This document shows, one piece after another, positions 3,197 through 60,743 of a stretch of DNA of 64,000 nt. This DNA comes from an uncultured Candidatus Saccharibacteria bacterium (GTDB lineage: Bacteria > Patescibacteriota > Minisyncoccia > Phycocordibacterales > UBA1006), in contig CAYXKF010000004.1 of assembly GCA_964464735.1 (NCBI GenBank), positions 3,929-67,928 on the forward strand, written 5' to 3'. The notes below the pieces were generated by a model. It was not told the DNA's origin. It ran no database searches and worked only from the letters and a program-made list of their open reading frames with translations. The first letter of the stretch is position 1. Each line of letters opens with the position of its first letter. A program made the translations under genes and the position numbers.

Positions 3197-3197
3197 C

Positions 3198-5165: not shown

Positions 5166-5197
5166 ATAGATAAACAGTAACGCATTTGTACAAAAAA

Positions 5198-6373: not shown

Positions 6374-6391
6374 ACAGTCAGTGTATGAAAA

Positions 6392-7141: not shown

Positions 7142-7171
7142 ACCCTTACAGTATACACAGTATTTTAATAG

Positions 7172-7188
7172 ATGCAAATCATTTGCAT
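7172..7188. promoter_or_regulatory. Perfect 17-bp palindrome ATGCAAATCATTTGCAT in the zupT/zur divergent intergenic region; candidate Zur/Fur-family operator
   Basis: The inverted repeat (8-1-8) is read directly. It lies between divergently transcribed zupT and a Fur-family gene. Confidence 0.55.
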
Positions 7189-7223
7189 TTACAATGTATC
7201 CAGTATTTGCTACACTTATACAT

Positions 7224-24628: not shown

Positions 24629-25888
24629 CTACATTGGAAGGTTGGCTGGCGGTTCAGCCTTGCGTGACTGAATGCGCCCAACGCTTGGGCTTTGCAATAC
24701 GCGGCCCGGAAGGTGGAATATGGTCGCGATTTCGTCGGCAGTCATCACGTTTACAATATGGCGCTGCACCGGCGCAGTAAAAAAGCGATGGTAGATGTCA
24801 TACCACGAAAAGCTGTAAAAATGATCGTGATACATGCGCAATACATATTCTTCAAACTGGTACCGTCGTTGGCGGTCAGTTATGGTATCATTGACGTCTT
24901 GCCACGGGTTGTCAAAACCAGTCATCGCCACGCGCTTTAAGGTGTTTAAGTTCCAGCTATTAAAGCTTTCAAACAAGTGCTTGATGTTGCGGTGCTTGTT
25001 ACCGTCGTAGTTTGATTTTTTAGCAATGTAAATAACGCGGATACCCACCTTCCAAGCATGCTGTGAGATTTTACGCTCGATCTTTTCGATAATTTCCTGT
25101 TCACCCTTGGTGATGGTGCGGAATTTTTTCCATACATTTGTTGCTGTGTCATTACTTTGATGGCTTGGATCATCGCGATCAAGGATTTTGTTAATCGCCT
25201 TCTTGCCACCCTCACGCCAACTATCATCCTTTTCAGGCTGGATGATGATTTGGATCCAAAAGTATTCGTTTTTGCGCACCGTTGTGCCCATGGCTTCAAG
25301 CATGTTCACCAGCGGGTCAATTTGTTGATCAGGTTCAAGTGTTTCAAGTTTTTTATCGGTACCCAAATCGCGGTATGTCTTGATAGGCAAATGACTTGGC
25401 TGGGTCAAGCGAAAATCTCCCGAGTACATGCGGTAATCGCCTTCAGGATGAAACGGCGGGATCAGCTTGGTGTAATCTTCAGCTTCAACGACTTGCGCCT
25501 GTGGGTACTGGGCATAAATTTGTGAGGTAATAATGTCGCGGTGGTATGCCGGCGTACGGATATAAAAATGGATCTGGCCCTCAAGTGAAACAATTTCAAG
25601 AGAAAACCACGCCAAGATGCGGCCTTGGAAATATTTTTTGTAAAAGTTACCCACGCCACCTGTTTGCCACATCGAGTTCATCAAGATAAGTTCCATCGCT
25701 TCAGGCGAACGCCGAATTTCCTTAGGGACACGAATTTCAAGCAAGACCCACGGAACACTGGCCGCATGCAAATAACGCTTATAGTAAACACGCGTCCAAA
25801 ATGCCGAGTATGCCAAAAAAATCACGAACAGTGTCGCAATAATATCGCCCAACGAAGGAAGAAAAGAAAGAATCGGCGTAGAGTTCAT
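24629..25888 (-). CDS. Hypothetical N-terminally membrane-anchored protein (419 aa)
   Basis: N-terminal TM (IIATLFVIFLAYSAFW); no recognised motifs. Confidence 0.5.
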   Translation of the reverse strand: MNSTPILSFLPSLGDIIATLFVIFLAYSAFWTRVYYKRYLHAASVPWVLLEIRVPKEIRRSPEAMELILMNSMWQTGGVGNFYKKYFQGRILAWFSLEIVSLEGQIHFYIRTPAYHRDIITSQIYAQYPQAQVVEAEDYTKLIPPFHPEGDYRMYSGDFRLTQPSHLPIKTYRDLGTDKKLETLEPDQQIDPLVNMLEAMGTTVRKNEYFWIQIIIQPEKDDSWREGGKKAINKILDRDDPSHQSNDTATNVWKKFRTITKGEQEIIEKIERKISQHAWKVGIRVIYIAKKSNYDGNKHRNIKHLFESFNSWNLNTLKRVAMTGFDNPWQDVNDTITDRQRRYQFEEYVLRMYHDHFYSFSWYDIYHRFFTAPVQRHIVNVMTADEIATIFHLPGRVLQSPSVGRIQSRKAEPPANLPM

Positions 25889-31174: not shown

Positions 31175-31747
31175 TTATACATTATTTGATCCGTTCAAGA
31201 ATGTTGCAGCCTTTTCGTAGCCCGCTGTGATCAAGATCTCGATTGCCTGTTTTACTTTTGGCGCGACATCGTGCAGTGCTTTTATTTCAACTTCAGTAAA
31301 ATTGCCAAGCACATTGGGTTTAATAAACTTTCCTTCGGTATAGCGCTGCGCCAAACCAATACGAATACGATAATAATCACTTCCGCCCAAATGTGCGTTC
31401 AATGACTTAATACCGTTATGTCCGGCGTCGCCGCGGTCGTACGAAATTTTTACTTGGCCCAATGGCAAATCAACTTCATCATGCAAAACAATAAACTTTG
31501 CATTATCTAATTCGTGATGCTTTTTTGCATATGCGGCGCTGATACCCGATTCGTTCATAAACGTTTGCGGCTTGATAAGTTCGATGCTAGTGCCCGCAAA
31601 TTGTGTCTTGGCAAAATCAGCCTTTGCCATTTTTGAATGCTCGTAGGTCTCGTTTGGAAACATGTAATCAAGCAAAAGCCAGCCGGCGTTATGGCGGGTT
31701 TTAGCTAACTTTTCGGTTGGGTTACCAAGGGCAACGATGCAGTACAT
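31175..31747 (-). CDS. pth: Peptidyl-tRNA hydrolase
   Basis: VALGNPTEKLAKTRHNAGWLLLD Pth signature. Confidence 0.85.
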   Translation of the reverse strand: MYCIVALGNPTEKLAKTRHNAGWLLLDYMFPNETYEHSKMAKADFAKTQFAGTSIELIKPQTFMNESGISAAYAKKHHELDNAKFIVLHDEVDLPLGQVKISYDRGDAGHNGIKSLNAHLGGSDYYRIRIGLAQRYTEGKFIKPNVLGNFTEVEIKALHDVAPKVKQAIEILITAGYEKAATFLNGSNNV

Positions 31748-31764
31748 AAGTCGATAATACAAAA

Positions 31765-32299: not shown

Positions 32300-33214
32300 T
32301 TACTTTTCATATCTTTTAACAAATGCCAATACTTCGGAACGTTGCGGTGAATTTGAAGCACCAAATCGCTGCACCTTAAGTGCCGAGGCGGCGTTCGCAA
32401 GATGGATTGCATCACGAATAGACTTCCCCTGGGCCAACAATGCGGCAAATGCGCCAGTAAAGCAATCGCCTGCGCCCGTAGTATCGGCAGCTTTTACCTT
32501 AAATACAGGCTCATACCAGATATATACCGGATCTGCATATACGATACCGGTTTTACCAAGCGTTACCAGCACGGCTGTATTCGTTTTTACGGCAAGTTTT
32601 TGCGCTGCTATAGTAATCGCTTTTTTGTTTTTACCATCAACTTTCTTATTTATATAAAATGAAAGCTCGGTTTCATTCACACATAAGATATCGGTATATT
32701 CAATGATTCCTTTCTCAAGCTGAAGTGCGGGTGCAGCATTTAAAATGGTAACCACTTTCCTTTCTTTTGCCTTTTTGAATAGTGCAAGTATGGATTTTTG
32801 CGGCACCTCGAGTGTCGCTAGTGCAACATCGCCATCCGAAAATAACATGCCTGAAGACTTCAAAGTAGTATCGGTATTTGCGCCACTTGAAACAGCAATG
32901 ACATTTTCCCCATCCTTCGAAACCATGATCATCGCTACCCCAGTTGGTTTTTTTGATTTGGATACAATAAGTTTCGCAAATTCTTGTGATTTTAAAAATG
33001 ACAAAACATCTTTTCCAAAACTATCGCGTCCTATGGTGCCAATGATCGAGGTCGGCGCTTTCATACGATTTGAAGCAAGGGCTTGATTAAGCCCCTTACC
33101 GCCGGGAATATACGATACATCGCCGCCAATGACCGTTTGTCCAGAATTTGGCGCCGAATCAACCGGTACCGTAATATCCATATTTATGCTTGCGAGTACG
33201 ATGACTTTTGACAT
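32300..33214 (-). CDS. rbsK: PfkB-family sugar kinase (ribokinase-like)
   Basis: GGKGLNQA and DTTGAGD motifs. Confidence 0.8.
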   Translation of the reverse strand: MSKVIVLASINMDITVPVDSAPNSGQTVIGGDVSYIPGGKGLNQALASNRMKAPTSIIGTIGRDSFGKDVLSFLKSQEFAKLIVSKSKKPTGVAMIMVSKDGENVIAVSSGANTDTTLKSSGMLFSDGDVALATLEVPQKSILALFKKAKERKVVTILNAAPALQLEKGIIEYTDILCVNETELSFYINKKVDGKNKKAITIAAQKLAVKTNTAVLVTLGKTGIVYADPVYIWYEPVFKVKAADTTGAGDCFTGAFAALLAQGKSIRDAIHLANAASALKVQRFGASNSPQRSEVLAFVKRYEK

Positions 33215-33232
33215 AACTTAATTATAGCATTT

Positions 33233-34951
33233 TTATAAAAACTCCTGCTGATAACATTCTTTGCAATAAATCACCGGCGCGCGGTCTTTTTCGTAATGGG
33301 TCCTAAACTGCTTGTTGCAATTATCGCAGGTGCGGTCTTTTAGTCGCATATTATTTACCCATATGCGAAGCTTTGCATCAATACGGCAAAACGGACACTG
33401 GCGCGGAATACAAATGTTTAACTTTCGAAGCAATTGAAGTTCAAGCGGAATAATTTTATATCCTTTTTTGCAATCACTGCATTCGATCGTTTCAGATAAA
33501 ATTGAATCGTCAATATGTGAAATATGATCAAGCACATCAGCAGCTTTTTTGGTAATTGAATATTCACGCTTGCTGTCATCATGTTTCCATCCGCCCATTG
33601 CCAAAACCTGGGCATCAGTCTTTGGATAAAACAAATTGGCAAACGTATGCTGATACGGAAACGGCGCGATCTGCGGCGGAAAAAACTCGCCGTACTTGTA
33701 TACATGCCCATTAGTATCACTGTACGGCATATCATCGATATGCTTGATAATTTTTTCGCGCAAAGCAGTGTATTCATCTTTTGTATACTGTTTGTTAAAA
33801 ATAACGTAATCGCCCTTTCGCGCCGAAACGCATCCAAACTGGTTGCTTCCAGTTATCGCAAGCTTGCAATACGCACTGTCGGTCAGATTGATACCGCTTT
33901 CTTGAACGAACTTCACGTTTGAAGCAAATTCGCCCGTTACCCCGCTTTCATACGCGTTTTCTAGCCCGTATCCAAAGTCGCAAATGTCATAGCAGTTCTT
34001 TTGCGGGGCACGGTACAAGCTAATACAATACTTGCAGTCTTCACAATACGCGCAGTCGTAGCATTCGTGACAGTTTTTTGATTCAAAAATATAACTGCCA
34101 GTGCAATTAACCGACATAGTATCCCACGCCGGACGCGGCACGACGCTTTTCCAAAAATCTTGTGCTTCAGTTTGCGCTTTTTGGTATCCGACATGCGAAC
34201 CTAAGTCATATTGTGCGCGTTTTTCAAGATACGCCTCTTTGGTCAGCTGTTCGTTTTTAAAGCAATAGCTTTTATTTTTTAAGTTCGCACACATAAAACA
34301 ATTGGTGCAGTTTTCACAATCGCGCAAAAAGGCACTGTCGATGCAAAAGCGATTATTGCCGCGGCTTCCTACCACGCGCGAGCTTTTGTACAGGTTCGAG
34401 CAGTCATAACACGCGTCACAGCTCATCACCATCGAACAATCAGAAACATCACGGCACTGCGTCACGTTAAACCCATATTCGCATTCTTGGTTGAAATCGG
34501 TATTGAATGTTAGATAACAATCTTTCAAATCGGCGGCGTGATTATTGTATGGCGAACCAGGAGTCGTCGTCGCATTAATTGAAAGGCCTAACAGTGGTGC
34601 TTGATGCATCAGTTCATCAAACTGTTCGAAAAATGGACGACTAAAATCGTAATCGCGGCCATAATCGCGCCAATCCCAATTGTCAGACCACCAGCATGTC
34701 GGGCAATACACTTTGTACTGCGAGCGTTTATCTTCGCCATTTGGCGGATACATCGAAATGAAGCGCTTACTGCACAAATCGCAGTCACGGTAAAACAAAT
34801 TTACCAAGTTGTACCAAGCGTAGCGGCGCATCCGTCGGCAGTCAGGGCAAAAAGTCGGCGGCGGAACCTGCATTTTTTCGTAAAATCCAAAGTCGTCATC
34901 CTCGATGACAAATGACTTTTTGCAGTTTTGGCAATTTCGCGTTTCGGTCAT
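33233..34951 (-). CDS. Cys-rich zinc-ribbon paralog G (array position 7); start MTETRNCQNCK, with its ATG overlapping the TGA of paralog F (ATGA)
   Basis: Family consensus at both termini (…FYEKMQVPPPTFCPDCRRMRR… / …VIYCKECYQQEFL); internal NKQYTKDEY module. Confidence 0.8.
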   Translation of the reverse strand: MTETRNCQNCKKSFVIEDDDFGFYEKMQVPPPTFCPDCRRMRRYAWYNLVNLFYRDCDLCSKRFISMYPPNGEDKRSQYKVYCPTCWWSDNWDWRDYGRDYDFSRPFFEQFDELMHQAPLLGLSINATTTPGSPYNNHAADLKDCYLTFNTDFNQECEYGFNVTQCRDVSDCSMVMSCDACYDCSNLYKSSRVVGSRGNNRFCIDSAFLRDCENCTNCFMCANLKNKSYCFKNEQLTKEAYLEKRAQYDLGSHVGYQKAQTEAQDFWKSVVPRPAWDTMSVNCTGSYIFESKNCHECYDCAYCEDCKYCISLYRAPQKNCYDICDFGYGLENAYESGVTGEFASNVKFVQESGINLTDSAYCKLAITGSNQFGCVSARKGDYVIFNKQYTKDEYTALREKIIKHIDDMPYSDTNGHVYKYGEFFPPQIAPFPYQHTFANLFYPKTDAQVLAMGGWKHDDSKREYSITKKAADVLDHISHIDDSILSETIECSDCKKGYKIIPLELQLLRKLNICIPRQCPFCRIDAKLRIWVNNMRLKDRTCDNCNKQFRTHYEKDRAPVIYCKECYQQEFL

Positions 34952-36648
34952 AAGTATTCTTGCTGATAACACTGCTTGCAGTAAATAACCGGCGCGCGGT
35001 CTTTGGTGTAAAACGTCTTAAATTCTTTGCCGCATTTATCACACGCACGATCAAGCTGCTGCATGTTTGAAACCCAAATATCGACTTTCTCCCAGATACG
35101 ACAAAACGGGCACGACCGAGGAAGCGGCAACGTATGCTGGCGCAAAAATTGCAACTCTTGCCCAATGACACGAAAACCGCGATTACAGGTACTGCAACCG
35201 ATCACCTCTTGCAAAATAGTGTCGGATGCATCTTTAATGTTGTCAGGCAAATATTTAGCTGCAACCGTAACAGCGTATTCGCGATTTTCGGGTTCGTACC
35301 ATTTTAGGCCCTTTACCTGCACCTGTTCTTTATTAAGTGGAAAAAAACGCGCGGCAAAGCTGTCGTTGTAAAAGTTCGGTGAGAATTCAGGTGGAAAGAA
35401 CTCGCCATATTTATAGACATGCCCTTCTGTACTAATATATGGATTAGCGTCCATGTCTTTCTTAATTTGTTCACGCAGCTTTTCGAATTCTTCTTTACTA
35501 TATTGTTTATTTAAAATCGAATAGTTGTTCTTTTTTAGGCTTACGCACCCAAAATGATGTTCGGCGGTAATTGAAAGCTTTGAATACTGTACATCCAACA
35601 ATCCATGACCTGATTCGTGGGTAAAATAAATATCCTGCGCGCCTTCACCGACCGTTATCGCTTCGTAAATACGATTCGAATTATTTCCCCAGTCGACATA
35701 ATCGTAGCTGTCTTTTACCGGGCCAAACTTGATAAGCATCAAATATTTAGAGTCTTCGGCATACGAAACTGCATAGCATTCTTTGCTATTTTTGCAGTAC
35801 GAAAAATAGCTCCCACTGCTTTTATCGTCTGAAAACAGGTCATAAACCGGCCGCGGTGAATATTTTTTAAAATGATCATAGGCTTTTTTCTTGTATTCTT
35901 GGTATTGGCTGTACGAACCCAAATCTATTTCGGACATCTTTTGCTTGTATTCTTCTTTTGAAAGCTGTTCGTTAAAAAATACATTCGAGGCATGCTGAAG
36001 GTTGATCGAGCCAAAACAATTATTGCAGTCATTGCAGTCGTAACAAAACGTCGTATCGATCGATTTGATCATGCCATGAGAACCGACGACATGAAAGTTA
36101 TCCGACGCCGATACGCAGTCGAAACATTTTTCAGAACCGCTTATAAACGAGCAGTTGAGTACATTTTTATTCTGCGCGCCGTAGAATCCGTATACATGCT
36201 CTTCGCAAAAGTCCGAATAAAACAGCAAATAACAATTTTTCGAATGCCCCACATGATTACAAAATTGCGAGAAATTGCTGGTCGGCTGATCAATCGAAAG
36301 GCCCAACAACGGCGCTTTATGCAAAAGTTCATTCCATTGCTCGAGGAACGGACGCATAGGATCATAATCCATCGCCAAGTCCTTCGCATCCCACTTATCA
36401 GACCACCAGCAGCGATCGCAATACACGACATACGGCGCATCTGGGTGATACATCGAGAACCGCTCTTCGTGACACAGATCACACTTTCGCTTGAAAAGCT
36501 GGATTCCCTTCATCCAAATAAGGCGGCGTTGCAAGCGGCACTGCGGGCAAAATGTCGGCGGAGGAACATTGATTTTTGCGTAAAAATCAAAATCCTCGTC
36601 TTCGATGACGAATGCATTTTTACAATTTTGGCAATTTCGAGTTTCCAT
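34948..36648 (-). CDS. Cys-rich zinc-ribbon paralog F (array position 6)
   Basis: METRNCQNCKNAFVIEDEDFDFYAKINVPPPTFCPQCRLQRR...; C-terminal VIYCKQCYQQEYL; a 2-nt gap follows the upstream paralog's stop. Confidence 0.8.
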   Translation of the reverse strand: METRNCQNCKNAFVIEDEDFDFYAKINVPPPTFCPQCRLQRRLIWMKGIQLFKRKCDLCHEERFSMYHPDAPYVVYCDRCWWSDKWDAKDLAMDYDPMRPFLEQWNELLHKAPLLGLSIDQPTSNFSQFCNHVGHSKNCYLLFYSDFCEEHVYGFYGAQNKNVLNCSFISGSEKCFDCVSASDNFHVVGSHGMIKSIDTTFCYDCNDCNNCFGSINLQHASNVFFNEQLSKEEYKQKMSEIDLGSYSQYQEYKKKAYDHFKKYSPRPVYDLFSDDKSSGSYFSYCKNSKECYAVSYAEDSKYLMLIKFGPVKDSYDYVDWGNNSNRIYEAITVGEGAQDIYFTHESGHGLLDVQYSKLSITAEHHFGCVSLKKNNYSILNKQYSKEEFEKLREQIKKDMDANPYISTEGHVYKYGEFFPPEFSPNFYNDSFAARFFPLNKEQVQVKGLKWYEPENREYAVTVAAKYLPDNIKDASDTILQEVIGCSTCNRGFRVIGQELQFLRQHTLPLPRSCPFCRIWEKVDIWVSNMQQLDRACDKCGKEFKTFYTKDRAPVIYCKQCYQQEYL

Positions 36649-36650
36649 AC

Positions 36651-38399
36651 TTATGCAACTTCTGTCTGATAACACTTCTCGCAGTATATTACTTCTGCGC
36701 GATCTGGCGCATAGGTTGTCTGAAATTCATTTTGGCAATTGCCCATATGACCGTGATTCTCAGCTTTGCACATGCACTGACGATGATAGAGTGCCGGAGG
36801 ATTTCTCCAACCCACACGATCAATATGCCGGCAGTTAAAACATAGACGCGGAAGCGGCAGCTGCGACTGACGGTAAAAATCAAGTTCTTGCTGGGTAATT
36901 TTAAAGGCGCTAGCACAATCAACATTGCAGCCATTTTTATGTCCGTCTAGTTCGTCGTGTTGGCACTGAATCACTTCGTTTATAATCGAATCAGGAACAT
37001 CTTTTATTGAATCAGGTAACTCACTTGCCTTTTTGGTGATCGGATATTTTCGCTCTTCAGGTGTTCGCCAGCGATACCCTTGCTTAGTCGCTTCTTCTTC
37101 GGTAATAGGAAAATATTCAAACGCCTGTGATTGGCTGTATCCGTAAGTAGACATATCAAAAGGGAAAAATTCGCCGAACCGGTAAACTCGCCCTTCTGCA
37201 TCTATATACGGCATATCATCCATATGTTTTTTTATTTTTGGAAGCAAATCAAAGTATTCCTCTTTGGTGTATTGCTTATTTAAAATACAATACGTTTTAT
37301 TGCGCACGCCAATGCACCCAAAAACATTACTGACGCTTTTGCAATTGATTGAATAATATCCGTCACTTATATTTGCGCACTCAAATGTAGCGATTGTTTT
37401 ATGCGCGCCGTTTCCGCAGCAAATCGTCTCGTACGAAAGTTCGGTGCCTTCGCTTGAGGTGATATCCATCCCGTCATTGTTCGGAGGATAGATAACACTT
37501 TGGCAGTATTTCATATTTCGGGCATTGCCTACAAAAAAGCACCGATCAATTTCGCTTGCGTTATTTAAATAGTCTCCAATGCAGCCAGGAGCTTGCACGC
37601 TGTGCTGATATTTAACGGGTGATTTTTCCCAAAAGGTTTCGGCTTTTTTTCGCGCTTCAACAATACCCGACCACGAATCAAGGTTCATTTCGGCAAGCTT
37701 TGCTTTATACGTTTCTTTATCACATGGCTGATTGAAAATATGATAGCTTTTATTTTTCAACCCGCTGCATCCAAAACAGCTGGTACACCCGACACAATCT
37801 TGGGACATCCACACCTCGACGCACGAAACGCAGTTGCGCGAAAAATACGTTTTGAAAGATTGCGTGGTGTTTATACAGTAATAACAGAGTTCAGAATCTT
37901 TTACATTTAATCCGTCAAAACATTTTTTGCTATATAAAAGCGTAACACTGTATGCGCTGTCTTCGTCATAACCCGAATCAAAACACAGATAACAATTTTT
38001 TGAATACCCACATACTGCATAGCTGCAATTCACCATTTCCATAGACCACATAATTCCCCATGGCACGACAGCATAGAAATCGCGAACTTGGTCGAAAAAT
38101 GGCCGTGAAAAATCGTAATCACGCCCGTAATCCATGGCATCCCACTTATCACTGTTCCAGTATTCATTACTATACACCGGCATTGGATTTTCAGGCGGCA
38201 TCAATGTAAATATTTTTTCACCAGTTGCAGCGCACGTGCGAGCATACAAATGGCGCATGTCGCGAAAACTCATACGACGGATCGCACGGCATTTCCAGCA
38301 AAATGTCGGCGGGGGTACCTTTATTTTTTCGTAGAATAAAAAGTCATCAGGCTCGATCGTAAATTGCAGTTTACAGTTTTGGCACGCTCGGGTTTCCAT
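36651..38399 (-). CDS. Cys-rich zinc-ribbon paralog E (array position 5)
   Basis: METRACQNCKLQFTIEPDDFLFYEKIKVPPPTFCWKCRAIRR...; C-terminal VIYCEKCYQTEVA. Confidence 0.8.
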   Translation of the reverse strand: METRACQNCKLQFTIEPDDFLFYEKIKVPPPTFCWKCRAIRRMSFRDMRHLYARTCAATGEKIFTLMPPENPMPVYSNEYWNSDKWDAMDYGRDYDFSRPFFDQVRDFYAVVPWGIMWSMEMVNCSYAVCGYSKNCYLCFDSGYDEDSAYSVTLLYSKKCFDGLNVKDSELCYYCINTTQSFKTYFSRNCVSCVEVWMSQDCVGCTSCFGCSGLKNKSYHIFNQPCDKETYKAKLAEMNLDSWSGIVEARKKAETFWEKSPVKYQHSVQAPGCIGDYLNNASEIDRCFFVGNARNMKYCQSVIYPPNNDGMDITSSEGTELSYETICCGNGAHKTIATFECANISDGYYSINCKSVSNVFGCIGVRNKTYCILNKQYTKEEYFDLLPKIKKHMDDMPYIDAEGRVYRFGEFFPFDMSTYGYSQSQAFEYFPITEEEATKQGYRWRTPEERKYPITKKASELPDSIKDVPDSIINEVIQCQHDELDGHKNGCNVDCASAFKITQQELDFYRQSQLPLPRLCFNCRHIDRVGWRNPPALYHRQCMCKAENHGHMGNCQNEFQTTYAPDRAEVIYCEKCYQTEVA

Positions 38400-38401
38400 A
38401 T

Positions 38402-40078
38402 CTATACCATTTCTTGTTGATAACATTTTTCACAATACACTTTTTCAAGCCGATCTGGCGCATACGCCGTATCAAATTCATTTGAGCAATTTCCAACATG
38501 TGCGTGATTTGTTTTATTACACATACATTTGCGATGATAAAGCAAGCGAGGCAGCCGCACTGCCATTCGTTCGTCGTGCCGACAAAAGAAACACTTTGTA
38601 GGCAATGCAAGCCTGAAGCGCTCATAAAAAGAAATTTCATGATTAATAAACCGGTAATTGCGCTTACATGCTTGGCAGGCAAAAATCTTGTCTTTTAAAA
38701 ATTCCCAATTGTATATTTGTGCAGGCAGTAATGAATCAAGCAAGCAATTTTCTTGCCCTTTAGTATCAGGAATATTATCCTCCCATCGATAGCCGAACGC
38801 CAGGGCCTGATCTTTGGTAAGCGGATAGTATTCACCAACGGTCGACTCGTTATATGCATAGGGGGAAATAGCAATTGGAAAGTATTCTCCCCATTCCCCA
38901 TTCTGCTTCATATGTTCGATTATTTTTGGAACCATTATTTCATATTCTTCTTTTGTATATTGCTTGTTTAAAATACAATAATCTTTTTTACGAAGCCCTA
39001 CACATCCAAAAAGGTTGTTCGAATTGAAACAAGCCTCTGAATATGTTGTATCTGTGCAGTCAATAGCTAAGTGGCAGAACTTCAGTCCATATGGTTGCGA
39101 GAAAAGGCACTCGTATGAGTTTTCAATATCAAGTGAAAAGCCGCAATCATAGCTGTTTATGAATTTGCGCACAGTAAATCCAAATTTGCTGTCTTCTCCT
39201 GATTTAACATCAAATGCCCAGTGGACATTTTTTGCGTGATAAACATGATTTCCGCTTGCAGCTACGTTGTGCGAACCAAACATGTGAGGCGTAGGAACTT
39301 CTTGCATCAACGCATCACGCTGACTCAAGATATGCTGAAGCACCTTCGGATCAGATAAAGGATACTCACTTAAGAATTTTTGGTACTCCTCCTTAGTAAC
39401 TTGCTTATTGAAAATATGATAACTTTTATTTCGAAGTCCAACACATCCGATGCAATTAACACATCCACGGCAATCAAACAAAGCGATCGAATCAGTGCAC
39501 GCCTCACATTCGCGGCAATACAGCAGTCGAGTAGACTCTAATACATCAATGCATTGGTAACAGTATTCAGACTTAAACAAATACAGGCAGTCGACCGATT
39601 CGCGACAATTCCATACTGAATGACTATAGTCACAATCTTCATTATCAACGCATCCAAATACGAAGTAACAGCGAGCGCTCCTGTTGCATAAATTGGAAAA
39701 TCCACAGTCGGTACTGTTGTTCACCATCAATGAGAAGCGGGGTACTTGGTCGTTTAATTCTTTATACTGTTCAAAAAAAGGGCGTGCGAAATCAAAATCG
39801 CGACCGTAACTCGTAGCATCCCAATCGTCTGCATACCATTCTTCGGTACTCCACACTGGAAAGGGCTGTCGTTCATGATACATCGAAATAATGGCCTTTC
39901 CCGATTTAGACGATGGCCGGCGATATAATGTCCTGAAATTTCTAACAAACAACCGACGAATCTGTCGGCATTTAGGACAATGGGTAGGAGCCGGCACTTG
40001 CATCTTTTCGTAAAACAAAAAGTCGTCCGGTGTTATTTGAAAATTTTGATTGCATTTTTTGCAGACCTTGATTTCCAT
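38402..40078 (-). CDS. Cys-rich zinc-ribbon paralog D (array position 4)
   Basis: MEIKVCKKCNQNFQITPDDFLFYEKMQVPAPTHCPKCRQIRR...; C-terminal KVYCEKCYQQEMV. Confidence 0.8.
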   Translation of the reverse strand: MEIKVCKKCNQNFQITPDDFLFYEKMQVPAPTHCPKCRQIRRLFVRNFRTLYRRPSSKSGKAIISMYHERQPFPVWSTEEWYADDWDATSYGRDFDFARPFFEQYKELNDQVPRFSLMVNNSTDCGFSNLCNRSARCYFVFGCVDNEDCDYSHSVWNCRESVDCLYLFKSEYCYQCIDVLESTRLLYCRECEACTDSIALFDCRGCVNCIGCVGLRNKSYHIFNKQVTKEEYQKFLSEYPLSDPKVLQHILSQRDALMQEVPTPHMFGSHNVAASGNHVYHAKNVHWAFDVKSGEDSKFGFTVRKFINSYDCGFSLDIENSYECLFSQPYGLKFCHLAIDCTDTTYSEACFNSNNLFGCVGLRKKDYCILNKQYTKEEYEIMVPKIIEHMKQNGEWGEYFPIAISPYAYNESTVGEYYPLTKDQALAFGYRWEDNIPDTKGQENCLLDSLLPAQIYNWEFLKDKIFACQACKRNYRFINHEISFYERFRLALPTKCFFCRHDERMAVRLPRLLYHRKCMCNKTNHAHVGNCSNEFDTAYAPDRLEKVYCEKCYQQEMV

Positions 40079-40080
40079 AA

Positions 40081-41811
40081 TTACATGACTTCTTTTTGAT
40101 AGCACTGTTCACAATAGACTTTTTCGAGCCGATCAGGTGCATAGGATGTTTCAAATTGATGTTGGCATACACCCTGATGATCATGATTTGGCAGATCGCA
40201 CATACATTTTCGGATCCACAGATGCATTGAGTTTCTCCACCCTACTCGCTCAAAATGCCGGCAGTTCGGACACAAAGTCGGCAAAGGCAGCTTCTTTTGT
40301 TTCAAAAATTGTAACTCGTCGGGGGTAATTTTAAACGCTGTGGTGCATTGATACCCGCATTCACCCTTATGCGCACATTCAATCACCTGACCAAAAATGT
40401 CTTCACTAACGGCATTAATATCATTCGGTATCTGATTGTTTAGCATTGTAATAGCATATGTTCGTTTTTCGCGCGGTTTCCACGGATACCCTTTCTCGCT
40501 TGCAATTGCTTCGGTAATCGGGAAATAATCCTGTACGACACTTTCGTTATACGTAAACGGGCAAAATTCATACGGAAAATATTCCCCGTATGCATACACG
40601 CGCCCTTTTGCATCCACATACGGCATATCGTTCATATGCTTGATCAGTTTCGGAACCAGTTCTTCGTATTCTTCTTTAGTATACTGCTTGTTTAAAATGC
40701 AATACTGCGCATTTTTTATGTTCGAGCACCCAAAACAATCCGAACAGTTGCGGCACAGCGCCGAATATTTCATGTTTTTTGAAGTCAGGCAGATAAAGCT
40801 TGCCAACGCGCCGTAACTTTGAATACTACATGCCACGCCTTCGTACTCAAGCTCACCGGTTAAAATACCATAACAATCGTAACAGTCTTTGCAGCTTAAT
40901 ATGCGGTTTCCGTTTGAAACATTTTCGCTGTTTTGCACATCAAACGAATTATGCACCATGCGCGAATTGTTGATAAAATCTCCGGTCGCATCCTGCGAGT
41001 TTACAATATTCGAATATTTCACCACCGAATTTTTGCACAATTCTTCAAATCGTTTTTTTGCCTTTTCAAGACCTTCTCGCGTATGAAGCTGCAGTTCATC
41101 AAACCGTTTTTTATATTCTTCTTTTGTCAGCTGCTGATTTTCAAAAATATACGACTGCTTTCGGATATTGGTACTTAAACAGCAGTTTTGGCAGTTTGCA
41201 CTGTTGGCAACAAAGTACGAATCAATGCAGCTTTGCGAACGAATCGCATAGTGACAGTTAAAATTACCCAGACAATCCACATTCCACGAACAATTATCCA
41301 ATTGCTGGGCACCAAGGCAGTCAAACGAATTTTTAGACTTATCAATATTTTCAGAATACTGAATATCTTCGCAGCCGATGACCGAAAACGCCAGGTATAC
41401 ATTTTTATTATCAAGCGTGTAGTTGCTGTAATCGCTGTTTACCAATGTTCCGCCGCGATACTGATAATTGCGCGGAGTCTTTTTAAACAAATCATTGAAT
41501 TGCTGCAAAAAAGGAACATTCCAATCAATGTCCATCGCATATGTCTTTGCATCCCATCCGTCGCCCATCCAGCATTCGTGGCAATATACTGGACAGAGAT
41601 CAGCGTCAGAATACATGCCGATGCTCATTTTTCCACATAGTCCGCACGGGCGCCGATACAACGACCGTACATTACGCCAAAGCATACGGCGAATACGCCT
41701 ACATTCAGGGCAGAATGTTGGATGCGGAACCTTTATTTTTTCAAGAAAAGAAACCTCATCATGAGTGACGATAAATGATTCTTTGCAATTTTGGCATTTT
41801 TTGGTTTCCAT
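40081..41811 (-). CDS. Cys-rich zinc-ribbon paralog C (array position 3)
   Basis: METKKCQNCKESFIVTHDEVSFLEKIKVPHPTFCPECRRIRR...; C-terminal KVYCEQCYQKEVM. Confidence 0.8.
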   Translation of the reverse strand: METKKCQNCKESFIVTHDEVSFLEKIKVPHPTFCPECRRIRRMLWRNVRSLYRRPCGLCGKMSIGMYSDADLCPVYCHECWMGDGWDAKTYAMDIDWNVPFLQQFNDLFKKTPRNYQYRGGTLVNSDYSNYTLDNKNVYLAFSVIGCEDIQYSENIDKSKNSFDCLGAQQLDNCSWNVDCLGNFNCHYAIRSQSCIDSYFVANSANCQNCCLSTNIRKQSYIFENQQLTKEEYKKRFDELQLHTREGLEKAKKRFEELCKNSVVKYSNIVNSQDATGDFINNSRMVHNSFDVQNSENVSNGNRILSCKDCYDCYGILTGELEYEGVACSIQSYGALASFICLTSKNMKYSALCRNCSDCFGCSNIKNAQYCILNKQYTKEEYEELVPKLIKHMNDMPYVDAKGRVYAYGEYFPYEFCPFTYNESVVQDYFPITEAIASEKGYPWKPREKRTYAITMLNNQIPNDINAVSEDIFGQVIECAHKGECGYQCTTAFKITPDELQFLKQKKLPLPTLCPNCRHFERVGWRNSMHLWIRKCMCDLPNHDHQGVCQHQFETSYAPDRLEKVYCEQCYQKEVM

Positions 41812-41813
41812 GG

Positions 41814-43559
41814 TTATGATACTTCTTGCTGATAGCAGTGCTCGCAGTATACCTTTTCAGGGCTATCTGGTGAATAGGTCGTCTTGAAAGTGTTAGCGCA
41901 CGCGCCGATATGGTGCGGATGATCCTTCTTGCAATCGCATGTGCGCTGCCATAATTGCATCGGGTTTCGATATTTTAACCGAGCCGCGTGTCGGCAATTT
42001 GGGCAAAGACGTGGCAATGGTAAATTCATCTGGCGGTAAAATTGCAATTCAGCAGGAATAATCTTAAAAGCGGTGGCACACTGTTCGTTGCATGTTCCGC
42101 CATGGTCACACGCGATCACTTCGTTTACGATCGAATCAGGCACTTCGGCAATCGTCTTAGGCAAATTGCGTGCCTCAATTGTTGTTTGATAATTGCGTTT
42201 TGCATCTTCGTACCATCGATATCCTTTCATCAATGCTTCCGCTTTAGTTAAAGGAAATAATTCTTGAGCCGTAGTCTCGTTATACGCAAAAGGACTAAAC
42301 TCGATTGGAAAAAATTCACCATATTTATATATCAAGCCAGCAGAATCAATATAAGGAATTTCATTCATGTGATTTACAAACTTTTGTCGCAAATTTGCGT
42401 ATTCTTCTTTTGTGTACTGAATATTAAAGATACAGTACTGGCGTTTATTAAGCCCTACGCAAGCGAAACAATCTTGGCAACTAGTACAAAACAGGCAGTA
42501 TTCAAGATTGCGACAGTTCGTAATCGCCCACTGACACATACGAATGTTGGAAGTCTGATCACCTCCTTGAAATACCTCATACATCAAAGACGAATTTGCT
42601 CCGAAGTTTGCAAAGTCATAGGTATCGGTTATTTTTCCAGTAACAAAACTGCAGTATCGGCAATCCTCCATTTCAAACCCAATAAAGCAATTCTTAGCGT
42701 TTTTCGTATCATTCAAATAATCCCCTGTTGATTCTATGTTGCGCCATCCATGGGTATACTTTTGAGGAAAATCTCTCCAGAAAGTTTTAGCATCCACCTG
42801 TATCTTCGCAATAGATTCGCTTGAGCCATCAAATAATTCACGAACTTTCTTTTCGTATGAATCTTTATCATACGGCTGATTAAAAATATGATAACTTTGT
42901 TTTTTGAGATTCACGCATCCGAAACAATTATTGCACCCACTGCAATTTTTCGAGAACCAAACATCCGTACAGCTTTCACAATCAACACTATAAAATGTTC
43001 TATAACATTGATTGCAATTGATGGTCTGATAGCATAATTCAAGCTGGTTACCCATGAGGTTATCAACACTATCTTTGCTGTGATTGATAAAGCTTCCATA
43101 CGTAATATTTTCGCAATAATCACTATAGGTCACCAAATAGCAATTCTTAAGCCAACTTGCCATATTAGTATATTCGGAATTTATTTTAGTCGAGTAGAGT
43201 CCATACAAATTCATCGCCGGAACCGTTTTAAAAAGCGCTTGCAGTTGAGCAAGTATTGGCTTACTTTCGTCAAAAGTATAAGGATAATCCAGTCCATCCC
43301 AAGAATCGCTCCACCAACATTCTGAGCAGTAATTTATAAGACCTGATTCGGGTGACAAAACAGTAATTATCTGCTTGTGACATTTTTCACATTCACGGCG
43401 ATAAAAAGTTCGCTCATTGCGGCGAGCAAGACGACGAATCAACCGGCACTGCGGACAAAATGTCGGAGGCGGAACCTTTATTTTCTCGTAAAACGAAAAG
43501 TCATCAGGCTCGATGGTAAAAGAATTCTTGCAGTTTTGGCACGAACGCGTTTCGGTCAT
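41814..43559 (-). CDS. Cys-rich zinc-ribbon paralog B (array position 2); its ATG overlaps the TGA of paralog A (ATGA)
   Basis: MTETRSCQNCKNSFTIEPDDFSFYEKIKVPPPTFCPQCRLIRR...; C-terminal KVYCEHCYQQEVS. Confidence 0.8.
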   Translation of the reverse strand: MTETRSCQNCKNSFTIEPDDFSFYEKIKVPPPTFCPQCRLIRRLARRNERTFYRRECEKCHKQIITVLSPESGLINYCSECWWSDSWDGLDYPYTFDESKPILAQLQALFKTVPAMNLYGLYSTKINSEYTNMASWLKNCYLVTYSDYCENITYGSFINHSKDSVDNLMGNQLELCYQTINCNQCYRTFYSVDCESCTDVWFSKNCSGCNNCFGCVNLKKQSYHIFNQPYDKDSYEKKVRELFDGSSESIAKIQVDAKTFWRDFPQKYTHGWRNIESTGDYLNDTKNAKNCFIGFEMEDCRYCSFVTGKITDTYDFANFGANSSLMYEVFQGGDQTSNIRMCQWAITNCRNLEYCLFCTSCQDCFACVGLNKRQYCIFNIQYTKEEYANLRQKFVNHMNEIPYIDSAGLIYKYGEFFPIEFSPFAYNETTAQELFPLTKAEALMKGYRWYEDAKRNYQTTIEARNLPKTIAEVPDSIVNEVIACDHGGTCNEQCATAFKIIPAELQFYRQMNLPLPRLCPNCRHAARLKYRNPMQLWQRTCDCKKDHPHHIGACANTFKTTYSPDSPEKVYCEHCYQQEVS

Positions 43560-45247
43560 AAGACTTCTTTTTGATAACACTGTTCGCAATATACTTTTTC
43601 AGTTCGGTCAGGAGCATACGCACTTTCGAATTGATTAACGCATTTTCCTGCATGGTCGTGACCTTCTTGTACGCACGAGCAAGAACGAGTGTAAAGTTTT
43701 CGGGGCAAACGCAAGCTAATACGCACTTTTTCACGGCAATCAGCACAGTTACGAGGAAGTGGAACTTTTTCGCGCTTATAAAACACCAATTCGTCAGGAA
43801 TAATATTAAAGTTTTTAGTGCATGTTTCACAAGTAAAAATATTTGAAATATACTCATCCGTAATATCTGCAATACTATCGGGTACGTCTTGCATTGTTAC
43901 CGTACCTTTTCCGAAAACCCCAGGAATTTTTTCTTCCCACTGCCAACCCCGAGCCAAAACTTCTTCTTTTGAAAGCGGCATGTATATTGCCCCGCGTGTC
44001 TCGTTGTAGTAAACAGGGGCGATTGACGGCGGAAAATATTCACCATATTCACCGGTCGATTTCATGTGTTCAATAATCCTTGCTTTCAATGCTTCGTATT
44101 CTTCTTTTGAATACCTTTTATTAAAGATCATATACTCGCCTTTTTTAACCGATACACACCCAAAAAGATTCTGGCTATTCTGGCACGAATCACAATACTG
44201 CAGATGCGAGTTGTCATAACACAAATGGCAAAATTGCAAATTATATGCGCGTACGCAGCCATGCAATTCATAGCAACCCTCGGATTTTATTCCGGCGTGA
44301 TAAATATCCATCGAATCCGAAATACCCAAAGTGCCGTAAATGTTTTTACTATCTTCGCTTTTATCACATTCGTATCCCTGTAAAACATTTTTACAATTAA
44401 AAAGAAGGTTTCCAACAGACGAAACTGTGCGCTCGCCCTGCATATATTTATGAATGGCATCGTACAGCATCATTTCCTTAAACTCATTAAACAACTGCAC
44501 TCGGACCGAATGTTTTGAAAGGTCGTACTGTTTTACTTTCTCTTGGTACTCTTCTTTCGTTAGTTGCCGGTTTTTAAAAATATAATGTCCGCCGCGGATA
44601 TTACACGAAAGAAAACAATCGCTTGATCCGCTTACGTCATAACAATAGAAGCAGTTTGATGAGTTGTTAAGCAAAAGGCAGTATTGCGACTGATACGAAT
44701 ACTGACTATCAATACATTCGTATAAGCGTTCGCCTTTTTCATAAATCCATCCACAATCACAACAGTCGCGCGAATTCATCGTCCAATTGCAATACGAAAC
44801 ATTTTCACTGGTAAACGTGGCAAAACAAATGTAAGCATTTTTATTTTCTCCACAGTGATTCGTATATTCAGAATTAATACTATTTTTTGTAAGTAGTGCC
44901 ATACGCGGAACTTCGTGTTGCAAGGCCGAGAATTGTTCGAAAAATGGTTTTGAAAAATCAAAATCACGGCCATAGGCTGCAGGATCCCAGGCGTCTCCCC
45001 ACCAGCAGGATACGCAGTACACTTTATAGGGCTTGTTTGGAGAATAAATCGTTACTGTGCTTTTTTTGCACAAATCGCATTCGCGACGATATAACGTTCG
45101 CTCGTTTCGGTATGCATACCGGCGCTGTTGACGACAATCACGGCACCACTGTGGCGCCGGTACCCCTATTTTTTCATAAAATGCAAAATCATCATCCGCG
45201 ATTTCGAATGAGTTTTTGCAATTCTGACAAATCTTGGTTTCGGCCAT
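43556..45247 (-). CDS. Cys-rich zinc-ribbon paralog A (array position 1, promoter-proximal)
   Basis: MAETKICQNCKNSFEIADDDFAFYEKIGVPAPQWCRDCRQQRR...; C-terminal KVYCEQCYQKEVL. Confidence 0.8.
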   Translation of the reverse strand: MAETKICQNCKNSFEIADDDFAFYEKIGVPAPQWCRDCRQQRRYAYRNERTLYRRECDLCKKSTVTIYSPNKPYKVYCVSCWWGDAWDPAAYGRDFDFSKPFFEQFSALQHEVPRMALLTKNSINSEYTNHCGENKNAYICFATFTSENVSYCNWTMNSRDCCDCGWIYEKGERLYECIDSQYSYQSQYCLLLNNSSNCFYCYDVSGSSDCFLSCNIRGGHYIFKNRQLTKEEYQEKVKQYDLSKHSVRVQLFNEFKEMMLYDAIHKYMQGERTVSSVGNLLFNCKNVLQGYECDKSEDSKNIYGTLGISDSMDIYHAGIKSEGCYELHGCVRAYNLQFCHLCYDNSHLQYCDSCQNSQNLFGCVSVKKGEYMIFNKRYSKEEYEALKARIIEHMKSTGEYGEYFPPSIAPVYYNETRGAIYMPLSKEEVLARGWQWEEKIPGVFGKGTVTMQDVPDSIADITDEYISNIFTCETCTKNFNIIPDELVFYKREKVPLPRNCADCREKVRISLRLPRKLYTRSCSCVQEGHDHAGKCVNQFESAYAPDRTEKVYCEQCYQKEVL

Positions 45248-45275: not shown

Positions 45276-47009
45276 TTATGAATTCAACGCGACAAACCAA
45301 TTAGGATTGCTATTGAAAATATAACTAAACCAGGCGCGCATGACTTCGGTCGCCGGAAAGGCCCCTACTTTAGGCCCGTGTTCAAGCAATACCACAAACG
45401 CATATTTTGGTTCTTCATACGGGAAAAATCCCACCACCCACGAATTAAGTTGTGAATTATTTTTACCAACCTGCGCAGTACCCGTTTTTGCCGCAATGTG
45501 GACAAATGGGAAATTAAGATTTTTTGCAGTGCCTGCGGTAACCGTTTGGCGCATCGCGTCTTTGATGACCTGATAATTCTGTGCGCTGATATTTTTATCG
45601 ACTGCTATTGATTCTTGTTTTTCAAATTCGGGAACTAAGATCGGTTTTACCAGTGTACCGTCGTTTGCAATAGCAGCAATGCCACGAAGCATCTGCAGCG
45701 GTGTCACCTGAAAACCAAAATGTCCGATACCGCTAATGTAGGTGTCTCCAAGCCGCCAGGTCCCATCCTTGAAAGTTTTTGCCTTCCATTCCGGCGAAGG
45801 AATAACGCCATTTTTTTCGTCACCAAGCGAAATGCCAGTTTTTTGCGCGATACCAAACAGTGACGAATATTCTTCGATACCGGCAATGCCGATTCCTTTT
45901 TGACTTTTATATCCGCCGGTAATTTCGTAAAAATACGTGTTTACTGAATCTGCAATCGCATGATAAATATTGGTAGTGCCATGTCCTTCGGGACGCCAGT
46001 CCTTAAAGATAGACGAAAGCGAAGCGTTATACGGGTTAGGAATTTCAAGTTTACCGCTTGAATACACCGTCGTTTGCGGGGTCACCACACCTTCGTTTAG
46101 CGCGCCGAGTGCAATAAACGGCTTCATGACCGAACCTGGCGTATATAAGCCCGACACCATGCGGTTTAAAAAGTAATTTTTGTTTGAGGTAAGCATCGTT
46201 TGCAGCCGATCACTATTGCCGCCTTGCGTAACCAGCAACGGATCAAATTCGGGATAGCTGGTCAAAATAAGCAGCTCGCCGGTTTGTACATCCATGACGG
46301 CACCGGCACCGCCACCATAGCCTGACGCATCAACAACACGCGCGATTTCTTGCGCCATGTGCGTTTGCAAATCAGCATCAATCGACAACGTTATGTTGTT
46401 GCCCGCAACAGCAGGTTCGGCAACGTGTGAATTTTGGCTTTCACCACCCACGTCGGTTTCGACGATCGTGTAACCGTTAGTACCCGAAAGCTGCTTGTTA
46501 TAAATTTTTTCAATGCCAGTTTCGCCGATTGTTTCGGTACGCCAAAAAAAACCCTTGTCATCGACTTCGGGAAGCCGCACATATCCTAAAATATGCGCAA
46601 ACCCAGGTAGCGTACCATAGGTTCGCGTTGGAACTTCGATGCTTGCAAGCGTGCCATCCTGCCCTTTGCGTTCAAGCGTTGTCATTGCGTTCCATGCCAA
46701 TGGTTTTTGATTGCGATCAAAAATAACGCCACGCGGAGCAAACACAATAGTGCGATCAAAACGGTTTGATTGTGCAATGCGCTGGTACTCTTTTTTATCG
46801 GCAATCTGTAACCATAGCGTACGCAAAAAAAGTAACGCAAAAATAACCGCGCATACGCCCAGCGCGATCTTTACCGCACCATGGATCGGCCGTTCGATTG
46901 ATCCTTCCATACGGTCATGTTCGATGTTGCTGATGTTTACGTCATCGTACAAAAAATGGTCAGGCAACACTTCGCGGCGCATTCGTTTTTTACCAAAAAA
47001 AGAAAGCAT
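45276..47009 (-). CDS. mrdA: Penicillin-binding protein 2 (class B transpeptidase)
   Basis: N-terminal TM anchor; transpeptidase motifs GSVMKPF (SxxK) and KTGTAQV (KTG). Confidence 0.85.
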   Translation of the reverse strand: MLSFFGKKRMRREVLPDHFLYDDVNISNIEHDRMEGSIERPIHGAVKIALGVCAVIFALLFLRTLWLQIADKKEYQRIAQSNRFDRTIVFAPRGVIFDRNQKPLAWNAMTTLERKGQDGTLASIEVPTRTYGTLPGFAHILGYVRLPEVDDKGFFWRTETIGETGIEKIYNKQLSGTNGYTIVETDVGGESQNSHVAEPAVAGNNITLSIDADLQTHMAQEIARVVDASGYGGGAGAVMDVQTGELLILTSYPEFDPLLVTQGGNSDRLQTMLTSNKNYFLNRMVSGLYTPGSVMKPFIALGALNEGVVTPQTTVYSSGKLEIPNPYNASLSSIFKDWRPEGHGTTNIYHAIADSVNTYFYEITGGYKSQKGIGIAGIEEYSSLFGIAQKTGISLGDEKNGVIPSPEWKAKTFKDGTWRLGDTYISGIGHFGFQVTPLQMLRGIAAIANDGTLVKPILVPEFEKQESIAVDKNISAQNYQVIKDAMRQTVTAGTAKNLNFPFVHIAAKTGTAQVGKNNSQLNSWVVGFFPYEEPKYAFVVLLEHGPKVGAFPATEVMRAWFSYIFNSNPNWFVALNS

Positions 47010-52460: not shown

Positions 52461-52548
52461 TGGCGGAAGCGGAGAGATTCGAACTCTCGATACCTTGCGG
52501 TATGCCGGTTTTCGAAACCGGTGCGTTAGACCACTCTGCCACGCTTCC
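52461..52548 (-). tRNA. tRNA-Ser (anticodon CGA), CCA encoded
   Basis: Cloverleaf read on the minus strand: GGAAGCG acceptor, ACCGG-TTTCGAAA-ACCGG anticodon arm, long variable arm, GTTCGAATC T-loop, ...GCCA end. Confidence 0.85.
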
Positions 52549-60651: not shown

Positions 60652-60658
60652 ATATATG

Positions 60659-60743
60659 CGGAGGCGGCGAGATTCGAACTCGCGAAGGCTTTCACCTTGC
60701 CACCTTTCCAAGGTGGTGCACTAGACCGCTATGCGACGCCTCC
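60659..60743 (-). tRNA. tRNA-Ser (anticodon GGA), no encoded CCA
   Basis: GGAGGCG acceptor, CCACC-TTGGAAA-GGTGG anticodon arm, long variable arm, GTTCGAATC T-loop. Confidence 0.85.

Follow-up and report, generated by a model that had tools for sequence, protein, structure and literature searches.

The stretch analysed here (the window) comprises 64,000 nucleotides (nt) of contig CAYXKF010000004.1 (assembly GCA_964464735.1), labelled as an uncultured Candidatus Saccharibacteria bacterium, and the element under study is an open reading frame (ORF) on its minus strand, at positions 40081-41811, which encodes a Cys-rich protein of 576 amino acids (aa) and ends with a stop codon at 40081-40083. 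A total of eight homologous ORFs were found in the window, the number given in an earlier note on this DNA, all of them on the minus strand: seven run head to tail between positions 33233 and 45247 and one lies apart at 35-1813 (Table 1, where the target is paralog F). The paralogs share 34-41% identity with the target, while paralogs B and C are 48% identical to each other. The longest ORFs start 25 nt inside the preceding gene, and a conserved start (M-E-T-K/R-x-C) was found at an ATG located 2 nt after the stop codon of the upstream paralog, also in the case of the target; judging from the sequence, the genes of the array are thus closely packed and are probably transcribed together. The adjoining ORF at 45276-47009 was considered as a ninth paralog and rejected, since it was assigned to PBP2/MrdA by Pfam and NCBIfam scans. 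In the NCBI copy of the target (P0001, 100% identical), the protein is annotated with 511 aa (89% of the ORF), the start called there appearing to be an internal Met that would remove most of the N-terminal zinc-finger module described below, and several database relatives (510-531 aa) look likewise shortened at their N-termini.

The domain order of the target protein is well supported: a module made of a treble-clef finger and a CxxC-x17-CxxC finger is followed by two consecutive units, each consisting of a beta-solenoid, an N-x4-K-x2-Y cap and a helix, then by a connector and finally by the two-finger module again. When the profiles of the eight copies were compared, the N-terminal module (~85 aa) and the C-terminal module (~105 aa) proved to be homologous (hhalign E = 2.9e−23, probability 99.5%, 80 columns) and alignable over their whole length, and within the target alone they share 36% identity over 83 aa (60 bits). 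The resemblance between the two termini pointed out in the earlier note is therefore real and even wider than claimed, as it spans two zinc sites at each end. Similarly, the internal duplication proposed for the central Cys-rich block was borne out by the comparison of ladder block 1 with ladder block 2 (E = 9.3e−24, 108 columns), which in the target alone are 27% identical over 135 aa (48 bits). The architecture can thus be called pseudo-symmetric in the sense that the domains follow the order A-B-B-x-A, but it is not the tandem duplication of one A-B unit.

The motifs that had been described as invariant fared differently. In the YGEYFP motif, residues G409, E410, F412 and P413 do not change across the eight copies, while the motif presented as W-x-D-x-W has W81-x2-D84-x-W86 as its true invariant form (the target reads W-M-G-D-G-W). 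With respect to the motif closing both ladder blocks, the Asn, the Lys and mostly the final Tyr are shared (N225, K230 and Y233 in copy 1; N374, K379 and Y382 in copy 2), but the remaining positions are not, the first copy being described by F-x-N-x2-[LVY]-[TSD]-K-[ED]-x-Y. Moreover, 30-41 Cys residues were counted per chain, 40 of them in the target, instead of the more than 50 previously stated. In the family alignment, the highest conservation was found in the finger modules, the second cap and the connector, and the solenoids were the most variable parts. Apart from the zinc ligands, most of the invariant positions hold an aromatic residue or Gly, Pro, Asn, Lys or Glu, and none of them is His or Ser. 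The AlphaFold2 (AF2) model of the full protein, built from 81 sequences, reached a mean predicted local distance difference test (pLDDT) score of 82.7 and a predicted template modelling (pTM) score of 0.83. Neither a signal peptide nor a membrane segment was detected in the proteins (maximum Kyte-Doolittle(19) value of 1.37, with hydrophilic N-termini), so that a membrane or secreted protein was rejected and a soluble, cytoplasmic location is the well-supported prediction. The isoelectric points range from 5.6 to 6.7 and the net charges from −2 to −11, the finger modules carrying +0 to +6.

Each end module contains two Cys4 sites, which makes four sites with 16 near-invariant Cys residues, and their retention was counted in 193 proteins of the family, taken from the window and from 80 fetched loci (81 sources in total). 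N-terminal site 1 had its full set of four Cys in 188 of these proteins (0-3 Cys in the other five) and belongs to the best conserved regions of the family (entropy of 1.38 bits). For N-terminal site 2, 121 proteins had the four Cys, 71 had none or one, a single protein had two and none had three. C-terminal site 1 was complete in 172 proteins, with 0-1 Cys in 18 and 2-3 Cys in three, and C-terminal site 2 in 185 proteins, with 0-2 Cys in eight. The quartets are kept or lost as whole units among these members, and the natural losses of N-terminal site 2 include paralogs D and E of the window. This all-or-none retention argues for metal binding by the four terminal quartets, which are predicted to be structural metal sites, most likely occupied by zinc. 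The metal-binding scaffold of the earlier note would then hold for these quartets, but not for the Cys ladder between them, and its idea of related zinc-binding units capping both ends agrees with both the profile comparison and the end-module alignment.

The first finger resembles zf_Tbcl (PF13451) in its C-x2-C...C-x2-C ligands, in the F-x-I...F-Y...P-x-P...C-P-x-C-R residues and in the knuckle hairpin followed by a helix. The N-terminal module of the target scored 22.8 bits with this model (E = 9e−5), under the gathering cutoff of 24 bits, and 10 of the 16 end modules matched it at E < 1 (best 1.6e−5). The second finger has in the target the exact C-x2-C-x17-C-x2-C spacing of zf_Tbcl_2 (PF23477, TIGR04272), which matched nine of the 16 modules (best E = 0.0016) below its 27-bit cutoff, while the NCBIfam scan of the protein, TIGR04272 included, gave no match at E ≤ 1. 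The family differs from both in scoring under the curated cutoffs and in fusing the two fingers into a module of ~85 aa, placed at each end of a 575-aa protein; it also differs from zf_Tbcl_2 in the His-rich insert in the C-terminal second finger of most paralogs, only paralogs B and C having the plain CxxC-x17-CxxC form. In the AF2 model of the end module (pLDDT 88), two hairpin-plus-helix units were observed, as in the treble-clef layout, with C6 and C9 within the hairpin formed by strands 2-5 and 12-15, and C34 and C37 at the start of helix 35-47. Both end modules keep an Arg cluster (C-R-x2-R-R...R-N-x-R...R). The best PDB sequence match of the end module was the LIM domain of CRP1, at a borderline E-value of 7e−4, and Pfam LIM gave borderline matches in three of the 16 end modules (best E = 0.0019). 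LIM domains (CRP1, PINCH, MLP) are also tandem Cys-rich zinc fingers, which serve for protein-protein contacts; however, their signature C-x2-C-x16-23-H-x2-C-x2-C-x2-C-x16-21-C-x2-C is absent from the end-module alignment of the family, the CRP1 match covers mainly the second finger, and LIM domains are eukaryotic. Zinc binding was demonstrated by inductively coupled plasma mass spectrometry for small CxxC-x17-CxxC proteins from Methanosarcina mazei (PMC12704099).

Regarding the Cys ladder, the spacing of every 5-10 residues suggested in the earlier note did not hold, as the Cys residues are separated by multiples of three with a super-period of 12 residues. Considering the eight copies, 79 of the 96 Cys of module 1 fall in one modulo-3 phase (P = 7e−23), as do 33 of the 34 Cys in the C-terminal part of module 2, and eight of the nine in module 1 of the target. 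The autocorrelation of the column profile was positive at every multiple of three and maximal at 12 (0.37 and 0.33 in the two blocks) vs. values ≤0.10 in control regions. The repeated triplet is [N/D]-[C/S]-[Y/F or variable], in which the central position is Cys or Ser in 61% of cases and otherwise Leu, Val or Ile, and the beta-bridges of the AF2 model recur from residue i to i+12 in both ladder modules. Most ladder columns contain 10-80% Cys, exchanged with Ser, Ala, Gly and Val, and hardly any ladder Cys are left in the second module of paralogs B and C. Moreover, neighbouring ladder positions showed correlations of ~0-0.36, and the combination of four Cys in the last coil of module 1 was observed in 47% of cases vs. 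44% expected under independence. The conserved and co-varying clusters of Cys ligands looked for as a sign of metallothionein-like or Fe-S sites were not found in the repeat region.

Such variable and independent occupancy indicates that the ladder Cys are small core residues rather than obligatory ligands. Obligatory metal sites in the ladder were accordingly rejected, together with the multi-metal scaffold once attributed to it, and a narrow solenoid of 12-residue coils with a core of small residues is well supported in its place. The other option raised in the earlier note, a disulfide-stabilised fold, found no support either, an extracellular fold of that kind being unlikely without a signal peptide or a membrane segment. 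The last coil of module 1 (C-x2-C-x2-C-x2-C) may hold a facultative extra metal site, as three of its Cys are kept at 87-97% and the fourth at 59%; the target has only two of the four. A solenoid mimicking DNA was also considered and rejected, since each solenoid carries a net charge of only 0 to −6.

Table 1. Paralogous genes of the window and predicted parts of the target protein (paralog F).
Feature	Position	Strand	Description
Paralog A	35-1813	-	592-aa ORF, 37 Cys; solitary, ~6 kb beyond dnaJ
Paralog B	33233-34972	-	579-aa ORF, 41 Cys; last gene of the array
Paralog C	34948-36675	-	575-aa ORF, 30 Cys; module 2 almost Cys-free
Paralog D	36651-38426	-	591-aa ORF; N-terminal zinc site 2 degenerate, with three of its Cys replaced
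Paralog E	38402-40105	-	567-aa ORF; N-terminal zinc site 2 lacks all four Cys
Paralog F (target)	40081-41811	-	576 aa, 40 Cys
Paralog G	41814-43589	-	591-aa ORF, 40 Cys
Paralog H	43556-45247	-	563 aa; first gene of the array
N-terminal zinc site 1 (predicted), aa 1-55	41647-41811	-	C6-x2-C9...C34-x2-C37, then Arg-rich helix CRRIRRMLWRNVRSLYRR
N-terminal zinc site 2 (predicted), aa 56-80	41572-41646	-	C56-x2-C59-x17-C77-x2-C80
W81-x2-D84-x-W86 motif and helical linker, aa 81-124	41440-41571	-	pLDDT ~90-96
Solenoid module 1, aa 125-222	41146-41439	-	[N/D]-[C/S]-[aromatic/variable] triplets, 12-residue super-period
Cap motif 1 and helices, aa 223-262	41026-41145	-	Y221-IFENQQLTKEE-Y233; N225, K230 and Y233 invariant
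Solenoid module 2, aa 263-371	40699-41025	-	Homologous to module 1; most variable region of the family
Cap motif 2 and helix, aa 372-396	40624-40698	-	I372-LNKQYTKEE-Y382; strongly conserved
Connector domain, aa 397-470	40402-40623	-	YGEYFP 408-413, Y421-N-E, G441-x2-W444; conserved, pLDDT >90
C-terminal zinc site 1 (predicted), aa 471-535	40207-40401	-	C479...C489...C514-x2-C517; homologous to N-terminal site 1
C-terminal zinc site 2 (predicted), aa 536-576	40084-40206	-	C536...C549-x17-C567-x2-C570; His-rich insert between the first two Cys

A comparable design is known from beetle antifreeze proteins (AFPs), whose repeat TCTxSxNCxxAx forms a 12-residue coil in which every third position is taken in turn by C, S, C and A, and a Cys is preceded by Asn (PMC8038014). 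The protein of Tenebrio molitor (TmAFP, PDB 1EZG) shares with the family the 12-residue coil, the small C/S/A residue at every third position and the Asn preceding the core Cys, but no sequence homology was detectable (E = 2.1 for 1ezg, or no match). In addition, the family lacks the T-C-T ice-binding face and the signal peptide, its Cys can be replaced by Ser, Ala or Val, and the lack of a signal peptide makes obligatory disulfides in the style of TmAFP unlikely. The left-handed beta-helices, including the spruce budworm AFP (1m8n), the ryegrass ice-binding protein (3ult), the hexapeptide-repeat acyltransferases and the gamma-carbonic anhydrase, differ in having coils of 15 or 18 residues instead of 12, and neither a Hexapep Pfam match nor the active-site or ice-binding residues were found in the family. 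The solenoid profiles had no significant match among PDB sequences, and Foldseek gave no match against the PDB. The family appears to represent, in the bacterial cytoplasm, a very narrow solenoid of 12-residue coils with a Cys/Ser core, a design otherwise known from the secreted and disulfide-bonded AFPs of beetles.

The family is large. A word-indexed search retrieved >7,000 clusters at 90% identity, all unnamed or 'hypothetical', from Candidatus Nomurabacteria/Paceibacterota, and an exhaustive hidden Markov model (HMM) search retrieved 5,260 representatives at 50% identity (E ≤ 1e−3), or 2,172 at 1e−30, nearly all of 545-600 aa with a single full-length match. Among GTDB genomes, it occurs in Nomura-, Giovannoni-, Lipton- and Jorgensenbacteria, among others, and the named relatives come from metagenome-assembled genomes of Paceibacteria and other Patescibacteria, save one record labelled Burkholderiales. 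This record is a 268-kb contig (JAMPXW010000002.1, locus L022) labelled 'Burkholderiales bacterium'; it encodes four members of the family along with two VirD4-like ATPases of the kind typical of Paceibacteria, and is probably mis-binned or mislabelled. Many third-party annotation (TPA) assemblies labelled 'Candidatus Saccharibacteria' also bear the family. Whole-protein scans of Pfam, NCBIfam, PADLOC and PHROGs returned nothing above threshold, leaving as sub-threshold traces only the zinc-finger matches and a weak match to phrog_15341, a family with no function assigned, and no viral relatives were found in IMG/VR or INPHARED. Clear orthologs exist for subfamilies H, E and F; those of paralog H (~60% identity) lie in other genomes within the array of family genes after grpE. 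Paralog E is of a short type, without the PYxDxxGxVY insert.

The genomic context was surveyed in 80 loci from GTDB genomes, where 1-10 family genes lie in arrays on a single strand. Soluble ATPases of the P-loop type similar to VirD4, TraD and HerA were found within 4 kb of the family in 24 of the 80 loci (33 ORFs); 32 of these ORFs share the strand of the family, and for 21 of them the nearest family gene is no more than 100 bp away. They show matches to conjugative coupling proteins and to CedD, a DNA-translocating ATPase of archaea, and their sequences begin right at Walker A, without any N-terminal extension able to form a membrane anchor. Furthermore, the long ATPase carries a CxxC-x17-CxxC finger (PF23477, E = 1.6e−10; TIGR04272 above cutoff). 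In all of the 11 loci containing grpE, a family gene follows it directly, and the recurring block is S11-S4-RpoA-L13-S9-grpE-FAM(1-4)-<paaX-like-dnaK-ATPase(long)-FAM(1-4)-ATPase(short)-dnaJ-<cysS, where FAM stands for a family gene (loci L007, L015, L027, L034, L049, L053, L055, L060, L061, L068 and others). The Hsp70 operon of these related Paceibacteria is therefore interrupted by the family and two types of ATPases. Some subfamilies hold their position, as in the case of the H-type copies of the array after grpE, and the subfamily of window paralog D is often found directly after the long VirD4-like ATPase. In one locus (L066, 8576-11584, plus strand), the long VirD4-like ATPase has a low-complexity tail of ~500 aa after the zinc finger, Pro/Ala-rich first and then with a Glu/Lys-rich stretch resembling a coiled coil.

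Within the window, the array is flanked by same-strand housekeeping genes: SecA, a Glu/Leu/Phe/Val-type amino-acid dehydrogenase and PBP2 are located upstream, while a putative ribokinase-like gene (32300-33214) and a putative peptidyl-tRNA hydrolase gene (31175-31762), both recognised by eye, lie downstream together with a putative UvrA.

On the basis of these results, the protein is tentatively read, with a probability of about 0.4, as a non-enzymatic and zinc-stabilised cytoplasmic adaptor or scaffold that would work with VirD4-like ATPases and Hsp70. The conserved parts, i.e. the Arg-rich finger modules and the connector, would dock a common partner, and the specificity of the individual paralogs would come from their variable solenoids. 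The soluble VirD4/TraD-like P-loop ATPases and GrpE-DnaK-DnaJ would be likely partners, and the cargo could be protein or nucleic acid. A non-enzymatic adaptor or scaffold is suggested by the absence of a conserved set of catalytic-type residues, by the conservation of fingers, cap and connector along with the variation of the solenoids, by the old and orthologous paralogs, and by genes interleaved on the same strand with those of Hsp70 and of ATPases sharing the finger type. A precedent for a lineage-specific, non-canonical partner encoded with an ATPase in an Hsp70 operon is DafA of Thermus thermophilus, a lineage-specific assembly factor of DnaK-DnaJ of ~8 kDa, encoded in the dnaK operon with clpB. 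However, DafA has neither zinc fingers nor solenoids and no sequence relation to the family, and the ATPase neighbouring the family is VirD4/HerA-like, not ClpB. A more specific and doubtful version of this proposal is that Paceibacteria possess an expanded Hsp70 operon (grpE-FAM-dnaK-ATPase-FAM-ATPase-dnaJ), in which the proteins of this lineage-specific family, twin solenoids with a thiol core and zinc-finger caps, would work as paralog-specific adaptors and hand defined cargo, either proteins or nucleic acids, to soluble, hexameric VirD4-like ATPases and DnaK; if true, this would represent a previously undescribed proteostasis or translocation module of ultra-small bacteria.

Several observations weigh against the adaptor proposal. 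In the window, grpE, dnaK and dnaJ are contiguous (11998-8102), with no family genes between them, and no VirD4-like ATPase was found in its 64 kb, so the linkage of both to the family is not obligatory. The linkage to Hsp70, seen mainly in Nomurabacteria-like genomes beside ribosomal operons, could also be inherited synteny and not functional coupling. In addition, the solenoid parts of the AF2 model reach only moderate confidence (pLDDT 58-75), the solenoid signal being stronger in the sequence than in the model. Finally, the Arg-rich fingers suit nucleic-acid binding equally well. This last option is the main rival, albeit a rather unlikely one: the end fingers would grip DNA or RNA, and the proteins would be regulators or would assist DNA-translocating VirD4/FtsK/HerA-type ATPases, for instance when DNA is taken up or processed. 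The Arg cluster conserved in both end modules and the match of the neighbouring ATPases to coupling proteins and CedD are in line with it, but the scans gave no significant match to any DNA- or RNA-binding family, the proteins as a whole are slightly acidic and even the finger modules carry little positive charge (see the values above), and eight regulator paralogs would be unusual for a tiny genome.

The abundance of Cys (30-41 per chain), the three well-kept Cys in the last coil of module 1 and the genes for a ZIP transporter, CorA, a thioredoxin-like protein and cysteinyl-tRNA synthetase in the window, or CutA1, DsbB and VKOR in related loci, would fit proteins whose Cys, including those of the ladder, store or buffer Zn, Fe or Cu or act as a sacrificial redox sink. 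Such a metal or thiol buffer is improbable, however, as most ladder Cys are poorly conserved, swapped with Ser, Ala or Val and vary independently, and only two last-coil Cys remain in the target. Besides, their one-in-three phase corresponds to the inward core positions of the beetle AFP (PMC8038014), a correspondence drawn from the period and not from coordinates, which would leave the ladder Cys poorly exposed. Non-Cys motifs and orthologous subfamilies are strongly conserved, which points to a specific role instead. Similarly low odds were given to the paralogs being cargo themselves, either effectors exported by the VirD4-like coupling ATPases of an episymbiont or abundant folding clients of Hsp70. 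The tight operon linkage with coupling-protein-like ATPases and DnaK, the diversified multi-copy family and the strongly conserved C-terminus are compatible with this, but the ATPases start at Walker A with no room for a membrane anchor, VirB4, VirB6 or other channel genes were not recurrent in the 80 loci, and folded multi-zinc proteins are poor secretion substrates. Finally, an anti-phage or conflict system, formed by an array of variable sensors or effectors and a HerA-like ATPase, is the least probable of all. Conflict loci typically contain diversified paralogs in tandem, and the ATPases weakly match the PADLOC models mad8 and HerA (E of 1e−13 to 1e−14); nevertheless, the family itself has neither a PADLOC match, nor viral relatives, nor a nuclease or toxin domain, and even in distant genomes it keeps its place among the genes for ribosomal proteins and chaperones, with old and orthologous subfamilies.

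The genomes of bacteria of the candidate phyla radiation (CPR) are usually described as very small, yet in this window ~14 kb out of 64 kb are spent on eight old and diverged copies of one gene, with up to ten copies in 21 kb in related genomes. The family has thousands of members, yet no name, no domain model and no paper were found for it, the literature search having returned no description of the family, its finger domains or the operon. Its placement among grpE, dnaK, dnaJ and the VirD4-like ATPases provides a testable lead to the lineage-specific biology of mostly uncultured organisms.

Further observations were made on other genes of the window. The 296-aa DnaJ encoded next to DnaK at 8102-8992 (minus strand) gave matches to the J domain and DnaJ_C alone and lacks the CXXCXGXG zinc-finger domain, which is present in the DnaJ of a related locus (L072, 13346-14452). 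Divergently from grpE, a protein with a PaaX_M (Cas2-like) domain is encoded at 12091-12702 (plus strand). Its homologs lie on the opposite strand just upstream of dnaK in 13 of the 14 related loci with one, and weakly match CARF/Csa3-type regulators in PADLOC; this paaX-like protein may be a regulator of the operon. Between paralog A and dnaJ (2282-7288), CorA, cysteinyl-tRNA synthetase, a thioredoxin-like protein, YibE/F and a ZIP zinc transporter are encoded, while CutA1, DsbB and VKOR appear near the arrays of related loci. Four minus-strand ORFs of 269-423 aa had no Pfam match at E ≤ 0.001 (12770-13579, 17892-19163, 19160-20218 and 24629-25888), the last of them showing a faint tblastn similarity (E = 2e−5) to one VirD4-like ATPase. 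The only RNA matches of Rfam and ARAGORN in the window were two tRNA-Ser genes, at 52461-52548 and 60658-60743 (-), with anticodons CGA and GGA, respectively.

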